Source: Escherichia phage S127 BCL3. Taken from it: 64,000 nt of DNA. This document shows positions 527 through 7,859 of this stretch, piece by piece. The notes under the pieces are model-generated. The model ran no database searches. It saw only the letters and a program-made list of their open reading frames with translations, and was not told the origin of the DNA. The number at the start of each line of letters is the position of its first letter. The stretch's first letter is position 1. The stretch lies in the sequence record OQ626344; one strand, given 5' to 3'. The translations under genes and the position numbers were made by a program.

Positions 527-760
527 ATGAAAGTTAAATTTCTTACAGATTTAGGGTACCCTTCCTTGGTTGACTGCGTTGGTAAAATTGTGGAAGCAAA
601 ACGGCTATCTGCAAACGATAATGTTGTCATGGTTAAGGGAAAAGATTTACTAGCTGCAGGTGCAGAGTCTGGCAGGATCTCTCCTGACTATACGTATTAC
701 CTGTCTTTAAGTAATCTACCAGAACGAGGCGGCAAAGGCCTTGAAGTTGTGGAGGAGTGA
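527..760 (+). CDS. small early protein, paralog family A (MKVK N-terminus, DLLAAGA core, EVVEE C-terminus)
   Basis: 77-aa ORF; RBS AGGAGG; shares motifs with ORFs at 4084, 4301, 5814, 6176, 6444, 7251. Confidence 0.7.
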   Translation: MKVKFLTDLGYPSLVDCVGKIVEAKRLSANDNVVMVKGKDLLAAGAESGRISPDYTYYLSLSNLPERGGKGLEVVEE

Positions 761-765
761 CAGGT

Positions 766-1302
766 ATGCTTCTGATTAACTGGGAAGACCTCTATGGGGA
801 CAAAGACCCTGTTGCGTTTGTTGATCGTAGGTGGAGGTACACTGAAGAACAACTGGCTGCAAAAAATTTAACTGCAAAACGCAGAAAGATCATTCAGTGC
901 AAGTACAAATACGCACAGTTTGCTGCAAAAGTGTCTCCACAAATCGAGAGTTTTGTACTTAAATTGTATGACGAGTACCTCAAATTCAAATTGGATTTTG
1001 TACAGGTATACCGTGCACAGGTACGTCCAGATACCAACATCTGCAGATGGAAGGTTGTTTGTGATGGTAAAGATTTGCCGCTCAGTTTGACAATTGAGTG
1101 GCGTTGGGGGTATCATGAGTGCGGTTTGTATGATATTTGGGATGTCATTGTAGATCCTGCTAAGTACCTGAACACAGAGGAGCTGGAATATATCAATAAG
1201 GTTATTCTAGATATGTTTTTCAGCTACACCCATGAAAACTCTGAGAAAGAACGGGATAATTTTCTTGACACCCTCGGCAACCACCTGCAGTGTACAATTT
1301 AA
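766..1302 (+). CDS. hypothetical protein
   Basis: ORF-track 757..1302 starts at GTG overlapping upstream stop; ATG at 766 has GGAGGAG RBS 8 nt upstream. Confidence 0.65.
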   Translation: MLLINWEDLYGDKDPVAFVDRRWRYTEEQLAAKNLTAKRRKIIQCKYKYAQFAAKVSPQIESFVLKLYDEYLKFKLDFVQVYRAQVRPDTNICRWKVVCDGKDLPLSLTIEWRWGYHECGLYDIWDVIVDPAKYLNTEELEYINKVILDMFFSYTHENSEKERDNFLDTLGNHLQCTI

Positions 1303-1320
1303 CCTACAAAGGAGGAGCCA

Positions 1321-1557
1321 ATGAGTATAGATGCTGTGCTGATAGGTTACCTGGTAGTAGCTGTTCTAACAGCAGTAATCTTGGCAGGTATATGCATCGT
1401 GTCTACACGAAGGGTGAAGTTTGATGATTTTATCACCATCATCACTGCTGCGCCCTTTTGGCCTGTTGTTATCTTCATCGTAATAATGTGCCTAGTTGAT
1501 TACCACAAGAATATCCGTAAGGAGAAAAAGGAGAGTAGGGATGGATACCGCACCTAA
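1321..1557 (+). CDS. small membrane protein
   Basis: 78-aa ORF; RBS AAGGAGGAG; two hydrophobic segments. Confidence 0.65.
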   Translation: MSIDAVLIGYLVVAVLTAVILAGICIVSTRRVKFDDFITIITAAPFWPVVIFIVIMCLVDYHKNIRKEKKESRDGYRT

Positions 1558-1693
1558 AACTGTTTATACTGTTCTTAAAGAGATTGCATTCTACGCAGAT
1601 CTTAGCCGGGCACCTTTATGGGAAAAGAATATGTATTTAAAATGGTGCGTGAAATTAGGGGGGCCTTCTAATGTTTCAAGCCATGTTTATTGA
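1541..1693 (+). CDS. hypothetical small protein
   Basis: internal ATG of ORF 1496..1693 preceded by GGAGAG RBS. Confidence 0.4.
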   Translation: MDTAPKTVYTVLKEIAFYADLSRAPLWEKNMYLKWCVKLGGPSNVSSHVY

Positions 1694-1790
1694 AATGCTC
1701 TCTGGGGTATTACTGCTGGTAGCCATTTTAGGTGGCGCGGCGCTGATGTATAATTATCTTGAAAAAGGGGACAGTAATGACAAAAAATAA
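1671..1790 (+). CDS. small hydrophobic peptide (39 aa)
   Basis: ATG preceded by GGGGGG RBS; hydrophobic core; below ORF-track length cutoff. Confidence 0.3.
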   Translation: MFQAMFIEMLSGVLLLVAILGGAALMYNYLEKGDSNDKK

Positions 1791-1962
1791 ATCCTTAGAA
1801 CAGGCTGAAAACCTTCTCCACGAGCTGGTAAAGGAGTGGAAAGTTGAATACTCAGATTTTAATGCAAGAGAGGGGGAAGATTATTGGCCTACGGAGCGCT
1901 CAGAGGGAGAGTGGTATCAAGATTTCATAGAATGGCTATATCAGACGTGCGATGAGGGGTGA
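1777..1962 (+). CDS. hypothetical protein
   Basis: ATG at 1777 with AAGGGG RBS; ORF-track 1759 start is TTG. Confidence 0.55.
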   Translation: MTKNKSLEQAENLLHELVKEWKVEYSDFNAREGEDYWPTERSEGEWYQDFIEWLYQTCDEG

Positions 1963-1964
1963 CG

Positions 1965-2420
1965 ATGTTTGTTAAATATGTAAAAACGTGCCTCAACAAC
2001 CTTGGTAGAGAGCATTGGTACACACTGCTTGAAAAAGGAGAAATTTTAACAAAATCTGGAAAGATAACTTTGATACCTTTGGACGATAAAGACCCGTCAC
2101 TACTTGTCATAGATGATTACGTTACAGGTGTGTCGTACGAGGTATCTGTGGAGAGGTTAATACGCAGATCTGGAGGTCCTTATGACCGAAGAGAGTATGT
2201 TTTCGATTCCGTTACAGAGAAGGAAGATCCGTCTCTAATGTTTAGGATGGTAATCAGGGATATGAAATCATCTATAAATAGGATCGTAAAGGACATTAAG
2301 GAGCCTTTTAGGGTAAAAGTTAAGAAGTTTTTTGATTCTAAGATCAACATACTTGCAGTTGTGCTAGGCGTAATTCAACTTCTGTTAATTTTGCACTATT
2401 TTGAACTGTTGTTTAAGTAA
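1965..2420 (+). CDS. hypothetical protein with C-terminal transmembrane segment
   Basis: ATG at 1965 with GAGGGG RBS 8 nt upstream; ORF-track start 1959 is GTG. Confidence 0.6.
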   Translation: MFVKYVKTCLNNLGREHWYTLLEKGEILTKSGKITLIPLDDKDPSLLVIDDYVTGVSYEVSVERLIRRSGGPYDRREYVFDSVTEKEDPSLMFRMVIRDMKSSINRIVKDIKEPFRVKVKKFFDSKINILAVVLGVIQLLLILHYFELLFK

Positions 2421-2480
2421 TGTGCATTATGGCACAAAGGATGTGCCATAACTAAATAAACTAAGAAAGAGGTAGAGAGA

Positions 2481-6083: not shown

Positions 6084-6175
6084 TCCTGCTTGGGTTGGAA
6101 TACTTTCCTCGACAAGAAATGTTTATAATTATTTGTGGGAAAGGAATCCCCATCTCTTACCAGAGGTGATACTAT

Positions 6176-6439
6176 ATGATTGTTTATTTTAAAACTTCAG
6201 GTGGATACCCTGATTCTCAAAGCTTGATTGGAAAAACGTGCACAGCATACTCGCCTCTTGATGAGGAGGTAAGCGGTATCCTACAAGATATGTATCGGAT
6301 TGATCCCCAAGAAGCTTTTGATCAAAACCTTGTATTTGTCAAAGGCTCAGACATGAAGTCTTTGGGGGCATTCCCTGAAGCAGATGATGATGCTGTTTAT
6401 TCGTTTATGACACCTTTTGAAGCCATGATTGTAGGGTGA
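6176..6439 (+). CDS. small early protein, paralog family A (divergent)
   Basis: 87-aa ORF; VKGSDMKSLGA motif; RBS AGAGGTG. Confidence 0.65.
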   Translation: MIVYFKTSGGYPDSQSLIGKTCTAYSPLDEEVSGILQDMYRIDPQEAFDQNLVFVKGSDMKSLGAFPEADDDAVYSFMTPFEAMIVG

Positions 6440-6443
6440 GAAT

Positions 6444-6776
6444 ATGAAAGTACGCTTTATTGGTGAAACAATTCCTGTGCATCTCCGGTCTCCTGAAGAC
6501 TCTGCAGATCTTGCATCTCAAAAGGCGCGAGGGTATGATAAGAAAGTAATCTCAAGCAATGTAGAGCTTGAGGCCACCAGTCTACCTGACCCAGCTGCAT
6601 TCTTCAATCATTATGGCTACTATTTTAGCAATCTGATGAATATTGGTGAGCTTGTGTTTATTAGTGGTGGAGAGATAGTTAGCAAGCTTGGTGGAGATCC
6701 AGATATCTTTCATGAAACCTGCCCTTTTGCATTTGTGGTGGGTTCAGATGTGGAAGTTATTGAGGAGGTTCGGTAA
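6444..6776 (+). CDS. small early protein, paralog family A (divergent)
   Basis: 110-aa ORF; MKVRFIG start, EVIEEVR C-terminus. Confidence 0.65.
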   Translation: MKVRFIGETIPVHLRSPEDSADLASQKARGYDKKVISSNVELEATSLPDPAAFFNHYGYYFSNLMNIGELVFISGGEIVSKLGGDPDIFHETCPFAFVVGSDVEVIEEVR

Positions 6777-7171
6777 TGGTAAGTCTATACCGTGTTGAGT
6801 ATAGCTCGGATACTGTATACAACGTAAGAAGCAAAGATCGCAGTGATAGAGTGCAAGAAATGTATGTTCTTGCAGACAGTCCGTTATCTGCAGCGTTTAA
6901 GGCAGGAGCTCTTGCATCTCGTTGGAAATTCGAGGGCGGATCTTTCTATGAAGAAACCCTTGAAGATTCTGTTGTTATTTCTTCTGTAGAGGTTTCAACT
7001 GACTACGAAGGGAAAAAGTTCGTAATGCGGCACCCACACAGTAACATTGCGTACTACTGGGATGTTTTGAACAATGAGTGGACTCCTGATATTCAGAAGG
7101 CCACTGTTCTAACCCCATTCCTGGCAGATAAGTTCCCACCAGAAGGTAATTTATCTGCACTGTTTCAGTAA
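6776..7171 (+). CDS. hypothetical protein, paralog family B
   Basis: 131-aa ORF; paralog of 4571..4969; same position after two family-A genes. Confidence 0.65.
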   Translation: MVSLYRVEYSSDTVYNVRSKDRSDRVQEMYVLADSPLSAAFKAGALASRWKFEGGSFYEETLEDSVVISSVEVSTDYEGKKFVMRHPHSNIAYYWDVLNNEWTPDIQKATVLTPFLADKFPPEGNLSALFQ

Positions 7172-7189
7172 TTTTATGCCACACAGGTG

Positions 7190-7218
7190 TTGACAACACC
7201 AACCCTGTGTGCAATAAT
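7190..7218 (+). promoter_or_regulatory. sigma70-like promoter (TTGACA-17-AATAAT) embedded in inverted repeat CACACAGG/CCTGTGTG
   Basis: -35 hexamer sits in the loop of an 8-bp inverted repeat (7180-7211). Confidence 0.45.
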
Positions 7219-7250
7219 ACCTTCATCTTAACAAGATAGGAGACCGATTG

Positions 7251-7508
7251 ATGAAGATTAAATTGAAAAACCTTGAAACGGCAGAGATTCAGGAAGGTGT
7301 TGATTTCCGTTCTAAAGATGGAGACATCCTAGAGGCGAATGTCCCGACATATAAGTTGATTAAAGGTTTTGGCAACGTTCCGGAGGAGGATATTACAGAC
7401 ATTCTTATGATGTTGATCCTTGACGGGACTGTGTTTGTAGGTGAAGGTGAGAACGCTATTGCAATCCCGAGCCATTTTTATGAAGTAGTTGACGAAGAGG
7501 TGCTGTAA
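7251..7508 (+). CDS. small early protein, paralog family A
   Basis: ATG at 7251 with AGGAGA RBS; MKIKLKN start, YEVVDEE C-terminus. Confidence 0.7.
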   Translation: MKIKLKNLETAEIQEGVDFRSKDGDILEANVPTYKLIKGFGNVPEEDITDILMMLILDGTVFVGEGENAIAIPSHFYEVVDEEVL

Positions 7509-7859
7509 ATGAAAGTAGAGATCACAGGTTTTGATATGAATGCGGTTCCGGAAGATATTTTAGCTAAACTCCCGGAAGGTTTTGGTAACGGTGTTGTGGT
7601 TGATGCTGTTCCCCCTACCAAAGACATCCTGCTGCAGTATGGTGTGGCAGAGGAAGATGTTGATAAAGTTCTTACAATGATGGCAATCGACCGTGTTGTC
7701 GTTGTTAAAGGTCTTGAAGGTTTTGATAACGATCCTCTGATTATTCGTGGTGATGACTATCGTGTCATCGACAACGAAGGCCAAGAGTTCTACGAACCTT
7801 CTGCTGAAGATGTTCTTAACTTACTACTGGAAGCAGGCACCGCAGAGGAGGAAGAATAA
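7509..7859 (+). CDS. small acidic early protein (family A-like)
   Basis: 116-aa ORF; MKVEITG start; acidic C-terminus. Confidence 0.65.
   Translation: MKVEITGFDMNAVPEDILAKLPEGFGNGVVVDAVPPTKDILLQYGVAEEDVDKVLTMMAIDRVVVVKGLEGFDNDPLIIRGDDYRVIDNEGQEFYEPSAEDVLNLLLEAGTAEEEE

Follow-up and report, generated by a model that had tools for sequence, protein, structure and literature searches.

The first ~10.3 kb of the DNA analysed here, a window of 64,000 nucleotides from Escherichia phage S127 BCL3 (sequence record OQ626344, to which all positions refer), carry twelve small accessory genes that can be grouped into three paralogous families, which we named alpha, beta and B. Five alpha, five beta and two B genes are present, and each B gene directly follows two alpha genes in what we call cassettes 1 and 2. 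Data published by others on the related phage Bas54 show that alpha-4, alpha-5 and B2, the genes of cassette 2, are each required only on a particular wild host, a uropathogenic isolate, that this holds partly for B1, and that these genes are dispensable on K-12. We lean, if only slightly, towards the view that the alpha, beta and B proteins are host-specific accessory protein binders, whose role is most plausibly to neutralise strain-specific anti-phage defence.

A preliminary description of positions 527–7859 had proposed that at least eight open reading frames (ORFs) of this region form one family sharing three motifs, namely an MK[VI]K.L start, a (K/S)G.DL(I/L)AAGA core and an acidic end of the type Y-E-V-V-E-E. 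The ORFs that it located are indeed present on the plus strand. They are listed below with the other family members, their orthologs in phages rV5 (ORF numbers) and Bas54, their PHROGs matches, their E-values in the leave-one-out test described further on and, for some, the ratio of non-synonymous to synonymous substitution rates (dN/dS).

527 to 760, plus strand: alpha-1, 77 residues; ORF127, bas54_0166; predicted SH3-like, of the subtype common to lambdoid prophages; phrog_5009 (E 2.5e-36); leave-one-out E 7e-7; dN/dS 0.10–0.16.
4087 to 4311, plus strand: alpha-2, 74 residues; ORF140, bas54_0159; gene 1 of cassette 1; phrog_5009.
4301 to 4558, plus strand: alpha-3, 85 residues; ORF141, bas54_0158; gene 2 of cassette 1; insertion between strands 2 and 3; phrog_5009 (E 4e-31).
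4571 to 4969, plus strand: B1, 132 residues from GTG or 123 from the ATG at 4598; ORF142, bas54_0157; gene 3 of cassette 1; phrog_7379 (E 2e-73).
5814 to 6083, plus strand: beta-1, 89 residues; ORF146, bas54_0153; lone beta copy upstream of cassette 2; phrog_11868; leave-one-out E 2.6e-4; dN/dS 0.03–0.04.
6176 to 6439, plus strand: alpha-4, 87 residues; ORF147, bas54_0152; gene 1 of cassette 2; phrog_13920, and phrog_5009 at E 1.2e-4; leave-one-out E 3.4e-6.
6444 to 6776, plus strand: alpha-5, 110 residues; ORF148, bas54_0151; gene 2 of cassette 2; long insertion between strands 2 and 3; leave-one-out E 1.2e-4.
6776 to 7171, plus strand: B2, 131 residues; ORF149, bas54_0150; gene 3 of cassette 2; start overlapping the stop of the gene at 6444; phrog_7379 (E 6e-66); dN/dS 0.02–0.03.
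7251 to 7508, plus strand: beta-2, 85 residues; ORF150, bas54_0149; leave-one-out E 0.0094; used for the AlphaFold model of beta.
7509 to 7859, plus strand: beta-3, 116 residues; ORF151, bas54_0148; acidic C-terminal tail, net charge -20; leave-one-out E 0.013.
7859 to 8188, plus strand: beta-4, 109 residues; ORF152, bas54_0147; starting at the last base of the interval first described; phrog_12457; leave-one-out E 0.0014.
8188 to 8475, plus strand: beta-5, 95 residues; ORF153/154, bas54_0146; outside that interval; leave-one-out E 5.5e-5.

The link between cassette 2 and a wild host comes from Bas54 (phage MaxBurger), which has been analysed by transposon sequencing in the HIDEN-SEQ study (bioRxiv, 10.1101/2025.11.20.689424). 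The products of bas54_0166, 0159–0157, 0153–0146 and 0140 have 90–99% amino-acid identity to those of the window genes. On K-12, all twelve alpha, beta and B orthologs were classified as 'Non-essential' or 'Intermediate' in the supplement of that study, and bas54_0151, 0152 and 0153 were 'Intermediate', with 0.69–0.73 of their TA sites hit (10.1101/2025.11.20.689424). Between K-12 and the uropathogenic isolate, mean insertions fell from 142 to 0.0 in bas54_0152 (alpha-4), from 71 to 0.0 in bas54_0151 (alpha-5) and from 108 to 0.0 in bas54_0150 (B2), with log2 fold changes of -7.16, -6.17 and -6.77, respectively, and an adjusted p of 0 (10.1101/2025.11.20.689424). Insertions in bas54_0157 (B1) dropped 4.4-fold on the clinical isolate (log2 fold change -2.1, adjusted p 0), and a fall in bas54_0153 (beta-1) was not significant (10.1101/2025.11.20.689424). 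Insertions in bas54_0141, 0062 and 0067 were neutral though the next gene downstream (0140, 0063 and 0068, respectively) was strongly depleted (10.1101/2025.11.20.689424), which makes polarity an unlikely cause of the cassette 2 result. The text of the preprint does not discuss this cassette (10.1101/2025.11.20.689424). The numbers stand in a resampling sheet (Extended Data Table 8, Data S6/S7) that is entitled 'resampling_K-12_vs_CFE303' and has a command line naming sample 311; the same sheet contains the two genes published for CFE311, the following sheet holds identical numbers, and the CFE303 comparison seems to be missing.

A neighbouring gene of the array has a demonstrated function in Bas54. 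The ORF at 9947–10258 (plus strand), which is unrelated to alpha, beta and B, is the ortholog of bas54_0140 (91% amino-acid identity), and bas54_0140 has a validated anti-defence function, directed at DS-28, a predicted system of E. coli CFE311 (10.1101/2025.11.20.689424). The array therefore holds counter-defence functions. The suggestion in the preliminary description of a host-takeover or anti-defence role is thus plausible and now backed for cassette 2 by the Bas54 data and by this neighbour, on the basis of one host.

The grouping into families was obtained from an all-against-all BLASTP comparison of 31 products (composition correction, 31-sequence database), which gave the three clusters alpha, beta and B. 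The alpha links were alpha-2 with alpha-3 (39% identity, E 3e-14), alpha-2 with alpha-1 (1e-7), alpha-3 with alpha-5 (8e-4) and alpha-1 or alpha-3 with alpha-4 (5–7e-3), and the beta links were beta-2 with beta-3 (4e-4) and weaker ones to beta-1 and beta-5. B1 and B2 are homologous (E 8e-10 to 8e-8, 27% identity), both belong to phrog_7379 at E <1e-65, and their alignment has 34 identical columns, including an HP.S…YW…WTP block; the preliminary description had rightly recognised these two paralogs (4571 and 6776), each after an alpha pair. In PHROGs, alpha-1, alpha-2 and alpha-3 match phrog_5009, as does alpha-4 weakly, and the remaining alpha and beta members lie in separate families.

The alpha and beta clusters were examined with profile hidden Markov models (HMMs) from which one member at a time was left out, all 443 window ORFs of at least 40 residues serving as target. 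The left-out gene was the best non-training match in all ten tests, with E-values of 1.8e-18 to 1.2e-4 for alpha and 5.5e-5 to 0.013 for beta, and the next ORF had an E of at least 0.13. Real sequences scored 11–61 bits (beta 11–18.6), against a maximum of 3.9–8.5 bits over ~300 composition-preserving shuffles (beta maximum 6.4–8.5). Since the left-out members beat both the shuffles and the other ORFs, composition does not account for the similarity, and alpha and beta are each a true family with five members; the composition-corrected BLASTP, the leave-one-out HMMs and the shuffles together rule out compositional or chance similarity and bear out the paralogy first proposed. With an HMM built from 35 alpha sequences, the five window copies were found at E 2e-15 to 3e-29 and no other window ORF below 0.8.

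The single family of at least eight ORFs, by contrast, is supported by neither HMM nor hhalign comparisons, and two families are seen in its place. The alpha HMM gives the beta genes E-values above 2, and the beta HMM gives the alpha genes E-values above 7. The hhalign probability for alpha against beta is 1.6% with five-sequence profiles and 10.6% with wide profiles, the latter with P=0.003 for the N-terminal 29 columns (the first two strands) only. Just three ORFs carry all three motifs. The core is found only in alpha (alpha-1, alpha-2 and alpha-3; degenerate in alpha-4 and alpha-5), and the Y-E-V-V-E-E end is the signature of beta (beta-1 to beta-5). Alpha and beta together have ten members, not eight, and the genes at 7859–8188 and 8188–8475 reach just beyond the interval.

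The terminal motifs are also seen in other genes: an MK[VI] start is present in 7 of 9 family genes and in 5 of 104 other predicted genes, and an acidic C-terminus in 6 of 9 and 21 of 104, respectively. These motifs are therefore enriched, not unique. Several C-terminal Glu codons also form the Shine-Dalgarno sequence of the next, overlapping gene (for instance GAGGAGG before 6776), and acidic ends are somewhat commoner before closely following genes (11 of 40 against 10 of 64). The idea that the acidic C-termini are a mere by-product of embedded Shine-Dalgarno sequences is only partly true, as no gene follows closely behind beta-1 or beta-5 and as even distant members of alpha keep the E.EIVEE strand. 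Sequence searches of Pfam, NCBIfam, PADLOC and the PDB gave zero matches for alpha, beta and B, in line with the earlier remark that no member belongs to a recognised family, and Pfam scans of alpha proteins with C-terminal extensions showed no informative fused domain.

An AlphaFold model of alpha-2, based on a 31-sequence alignment, had a mean predicted local distance difference test (pLDDT) score of 92, with strands at residues 2–5, 21–26, 33–37, 56–61 and 65–69; residues 38–43 form a short helix. Its structural matches were only generic SH3, KOW and PsaE folds. According to this confident model, alpha is predicted to be a small, mostly acidic SH3-like beta-barrel with a core of ~70 residues, a resemblance of fold and not a membership. 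The conserved scaffold runs from strand 1 (MKVK.L) and strand 2 (GKV..A) through a short helix (G.DLI.AGA) to strand 4 (Y.F) and strand 5 (E.EIVEE); strands 2 and 3 are joined by a highly variable loop with 0 to ~50 inserted residues. The known SH3-like barrels (the KOW domains of Spt5/NusG, PsaE, the C-terminal domain of retroviral integrase and eukaryotic SH3) show no sequence similarity to alpha, which differs from them by the extra conserved helix G.DLI.AGA after strand 3 and by being mostly strongly acidic; none of the KOW or SH3 functional sites can be mapped onto it.

The beta model (beta-2, 40-sequence alignment, pLDDT 89) has strands at 26–30, 61–63, 70–72 and 77–79 after a first one at 2–5, and helices at 34–38 and 45–57. 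The strand order is identical in the alpha and beta models, and the two-helix insert of beta lies at the site of the insertions of alpha-3, alpha-4 and alpha-5. In BFVD, folds similar to alpha are predicted for uncharacterised small proteins of T4-like and other phages (template modelling (TM) score 0.7–0.87), and the second match of the beta-2 model is the ECP32 ortholog of beta-5 (TM 0.67). The two models retrieve mostly different BFVD entries, with an overlap limited to a few weak matches. Because the HMMs give no cross-detection, hhalign does not exceed 10.6% and the BFVD lists barely overlap, a common origin of alpha and beta is possible but unproven, and we consider it about as probable as not.

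Further small, mostly acidic and strand-rich proteins are encoded at 8984–9235, 89–487 and 9624–9950 (plus strand) and at 32160–32354 and 49010–49267 (minus strand), several of them with an MK[VI] start. The third BFVD match of the beta model is a protein of Shigella phage CM1 (83 residues, TM 0.51), equal in length to the product of 8984. No sequence link between these five proteins and alpha or beta was found; possibly they represent additional small barrels of a similar sort.

Outside this genome, a word-indexed search of 5.8 billion proteins yielded, for each of the three families, hardly anything but Vequintavirus orthologs. B is confined to Vequintavirus and occurs there only beside alpha pairs. 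An exhaustive search of 1.84 billion representatives with the alpha HMM gave 44 relatives at E up to 1e-3, most of them of 63–87 residues and with the pattern MKVKLLNDGGY…VGKV..A…G.DLI.AGA…Y.F..G.E.EIIEE; three giant proteins among the matches (P0099, P0121 and P0136) aligned over short stretches only. As distant relatives keep the same pattern, the N- and C-terminal motifs of alpha are genuine strands of the fold. The gene for a lambdoid homolog (P0030) has the Q antiterminator gene on one side and the holin gene on the other, an accessory or moron setting, both in E. coli prophages and in mEp515 and mEp554; it was found in 13 of 5426 complete E. coli genomes. Searches of IMG/VR for two relatives (P0119 and P0101) gave zero matches. 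Plasmid leading-region relatives were looked for and none was obtained, the lone 'plasmid' match being a 137-kb record that resembles a Vequintavirus genome.

Multiplicity and adjacency are a recurring property of the alpha family. Of two unrelated viral contigs, one (L007) carries three tandem copies after a primase gene, the other (L008) three after a family A DNA polymerase gene and two more upstream, and three metagenomic proteins (P0111, P0133 and P0106) are single-chain fusions of two to three alpha domains. By the gene-fusion argument, these arrays and natural fusions suggest that adjacent alpha proteins probably act together. No B gene accompanies alpha in the lambdoid prophages or on the contigs L006, L007 and L008.

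Within Vequintavirus, the block has identical gene content in ~116 of 120 related genomes. When each alpha, beta and B gene was compared in pairs with its counterparts in three relatives, dN/dS was always within 0.02–0.19, like that of neighbouring genes. By these comparisons, the paralogs are old, individually constrained and non-diversifying, contrary to the diversifying array first proposed, and the purifying selection on each old copy implies a distinct job for each. A much more divergent relative (L011) keeps alpha-1, alpha-2, the full cassette alpha-4/alpha-5/B2 and one plus four beta genes; its alpha-3 is reduced to a 44-residue remnant and B1 is absent. In the same genome, a 98-residue gene of Pfam family PF27050 (Phage_P22_Y8K6) is inserted at 10802–11098 between B2 and the beta operon, and this intergenic promoter region thus seems to be an insertion hotspot. 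Bas59 (phage EduardKellenberger; L015, 2119–2894) has a natural deletion of ~3.7 kb, from inside the 'putative glycosidase' gene (ortholog of 757–1302) to just before the ortholog of 4987, by which about twelve genes are lost. All of cassette 1 is among them, which together with the K-12 data fits genes that are dispensable on a host without the matching defence.

The history of the array involves recombination within and into it, as seen from a chimera with an N-terminal part of the alpha-2 type and a C-terminal part of the alpha-3 type (P0014) and from another that joins a DUF7399 N-terminus to a C-terminal half of the beta-4 type (P0086). In a neighbour-joining tree of alpha, ortholog pairs had 99–100% support and deeper nodes were unresolved (<40%). 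Alpha-1 grouped with the lambdoid genes (P0030; 72% bootstrap) and not with its array neighbours, so the array, made up of real paralogs as the preliminary description held, is not purely the product of amplification in situ. The position of each B gene directly after two alpha genes has a probability of ~1.7e-4 under random gene order (post hoc). Across the cassettes, B1 and B2 are homologous and alpha-3 and alpha-5 give the sole alpha match (E 8e-4), alpha-2 being closest to alpha-3 and not to alpha-4. The A-A-B arrangement thus occurs twice, as described, and its duplication en bloc is not demonstrated; judging from the sequences, a history in which an alpha-B pair was duplicated first and local tandem duplication came afterwards would fit at least as well.

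Positions 1–10000 match 122 phage records, all of them Vequintavirus (rV5-like) myoviruses of E. coli, with B9-1 and ECP26 as the closest; in 115 of them the match spans 80% or more of the query, with an identity of 85–98.6%. The GC skew shows that the first ~10.3 kb is read from the plus strand, and this part holds ~31 short, densely packed genes. The alpha, beta and B genes lie downstream of nucleotide-metabolism and replication genes, and the array also encodes PhoH-like and ClpP-like proteins upstream. Nearly all of the ~31 genes are labelled 'hypothetical protein' in related records, the main exception being a ribosome hibernation factor homolog at 5359–5670, and the alpha, beta and B ORFs are annotated as coding sequences, each a 'hypothetical protein', in rV5, Bas49, Bas54 and others. 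The rV5 genome paper refers to this part as 'mainly small ORFs' and does not mention paralogy. Two promoters annotated in rV5 have counterparts here:

5284 to 5312, plus strand: sigma70-type promoter P144 of rV5, preceding the HPF/RaiA homolog that separates the cassettes; 11 of 12 consensus matches.
7190 to 7218, plus strand: sigma70-type promoter P150 of rV5, preceding the four-gene beta operon; TTGACA-17-AATAAT with TG, 11 of 12 matches.

In addition, a perfect TATAAT is present at 6124, inside the 92-nt gap that precedes cassette 2. From the promoters and the position, the array is probably expressed early; no Vequintavirus transcriptome was found in the literature. The HPF/RaiA homolog (5359–5670, plus strand), which lies between the two cassettes and has its own promoter, is non-essential in Bas54 on both hosts.

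In the reading that we favour, the alpha, beta and B products would be made from host-type promoters early in infection and would act as stoichiometric protein binders. The conserved alpha barrel would serve as the scaffold, and the choice of target would fall to the variable loop that joins strands 2 and 3. Neighbouring alpha proteins may act as a pair and, in the cassettes, jointly with the B protein. What they neutralise would be a host factor peculiar to certain strains, with a system of anti-phage defence as the most plausible candidate.

Several points weigh against this interpretation. The binding of proteins, their pairing and the function of the loop are deduced from anatomy, and the alignment of B is very shallow. 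The phenotype comes from one host, one preprint and the mislabelled sheet, and neither the remaining three alpha genes nor any of the five beta genes had a significant phenotype on the clinical isolate (10.1101/2025.11.20.689424). The conditional requirement could also reflect metabolism, surface or physiology instead of immunity. The cognate defence system is hypothetical; from the clinical isolate only DS-28 and Gao_Tmn were cloned, and these were assayed only with knockouts of bas54_0063 and 0140 (10.1101/2025.11.20.689424). Finally, according to BASEL the Vequintavirinae show an unusual sensitivity to restriction-modification systems, and this speaks against broad protection or a broad role in anti-restriction.

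A more specific version is that alpha-4, alpha-5 and B2 form a three-protein counter-defence module, made of families that lack known relatives and directed against an immunity system of uropathogenic E. coli. The alpha barrel would then be a phage 'binder scaffold', with a conserved SH3-like core and a hypervariable loop between strands 2 and 3, that works in hetero-pairs and has been multiplied, in unrelated phages as tandem arrays and fusions, for several host targets. We put this forward as a tentative possibility that is rather unlikely to hold in full.

A general role in host takeover, by which the acidic barrels would redirect core machinery (RNA polymerase, ribosome, nucleoid or proteases) and the strain effect would reflect allelic or physiological differences, seems to us unlikely. 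It would agree with the company that the genes keep, namely the ribosome hibernation factor homolog encoded between the cassettes and the PhoH-like and ClpP-like proteins encoded upstream, and with the 'Intermediate' class of bas54_0151, 0152 and 0153 even on K-12. Every one of the genes nevertheless tolerates insertions on that strain, and core machinery is nearly invariant among E. coli strains, yet the requirement is all-or-none between two strains. The isoelectric points, 4.05–4.68 in nine of the ten alpha and beta proteins (alpha-1, 5.39), are also unlike those of RNA-binding KOW or ribosomal barrels.

It is still more doubtful that B alone is the effector, B2 (and partly B1) being active and the alpha genes contributing indirectly through translational coupling, mRNA stability, polarity or as chaperones or regulators of B, without a target of their own. 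Coupling is probable, as the genes at 6444 and 6776 overlap (stop/ATG) and those at 6176 and 6444 lie 4 nt apart (B1 begins 12 nt after alpha-3). The restriction of the cassette 1 phenotype to B1, with neither alpha gene affected, and the occurrence of B solely beside alpha pairs point in the same direction. Against this stand the lack of polarity in the overlapping or close pairs 0141/0140, 0062/0063 and 0067/0068, the strong purifying selection on each alpha copy and the wide distribution of alpha without B, which implies a B-independent function. The B proteins differ in charge, B1 being near neutral and B2 acidic.

Least probable of all is a single superfamily that was amplified in situ, diversifies under an arms race and had its A-A-B cassette duplicated en bloc: the strand order and insertion site common to alpha and beta, the MK[VI]K strand 1 and G-x-hydrophobic-x-A strand 2, the hhalign signal over 29 columns, the homologous B genes after alpha pairs, the match between alpha-3 and alpha-5 (each directly before B) and the recombinant neighbour fusion P0014 all speak for it, but the failed cross-detection, the separate BFVD lists, the low dN/dS with constant gene content across the genus, the lambdoid affinity of alpha-1 and the closeness of alpha-2 to alpha-3 make it very unlikely.

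Two other parts of the window deserve mention. The ORF at 1959–2420 (plus strand), a gene of the accessory block whose product has a hydrophobic C-terminus, is the ortholog of rV5 gp133, a predominant protein in virion mass spectrometry. The main text of the rV5 proteomics paper names gp133 as the sole virion protein from the accessory region; a role of the array proteins as virion components was set aside on the basis of that main text. At ~11100–13660, where the direction of transcription switches, there is an ORF-poor region of ~2.5 kb with the direct repeats ACTGTTTACGCATA (three copies, one of them 86% identical) and GCCATGCCATTCGTTTGCAT (two copies) and a perfect 18-nt inverted repeat (12815–12832 / 12949–12966). 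It gave no Rfam match, and the equivalent region of Bas54 tolerated zero transposon insertions; the stretch may be an origin of replication or have a regulatory role.

With their broad host range, rV5-like phages are often considered for phage therapy and biocontrol, and most of their ~90 small accessory genes are unexplained. The present analysis groups twelve of these genes into three families, gives confident fold models for two of them, describes alpha as a phage family that is rare yet widespread and often present in several copies, and ties one cassette to a genetic phenotype on a clinical strain that was already in the published data but had not been discussed. If cassette 2 serves some other host-specific need, it would still bear on host-range prediction for therapeutic phages. 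In PHROGs, every window protein matches its family end to end and all of these families are of 'unknown function'; alpha is split into three (phrog_5009, 13920 and 13661) and beta into five (phrog_11868, 12359, 12155, 12457 and 12794), with B in phrog_7379. The alpha and beta paralogy is recorded neither there nor in the rV5 genome paper.

Compared with known clusters of small accessory or anti-defence genes, such as the class I genes of T7 with Ocr, the internal proteins and early genes of T4 and the anti-CRISPR loci, the array is alike in that its products are small and mostly acidic and its genes densely packed and provided with host-type promoters. Like those genes, its members are dispensable on the laboratory host, those of cassette 2 are conditionally required on a wild host, and the array contains a validated anti-defence gene. 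It differs from them in that there is no homology to characterised anti-defence proteins, in that typical anti-defence islands vary between related phages whereas the alpha/beta/B array does not, and in the unusual requirement for three genes in cassette 2. The closest comparison is with bas54_0140, which lies in the same plus-strand array, 1.5 kb downstream of the beta operon, and is depleted in the same transposon comparison. It is not homologous to alpha, beta or B, and its knockout, unlike cassette 2, has been validated against a cloned defence system.

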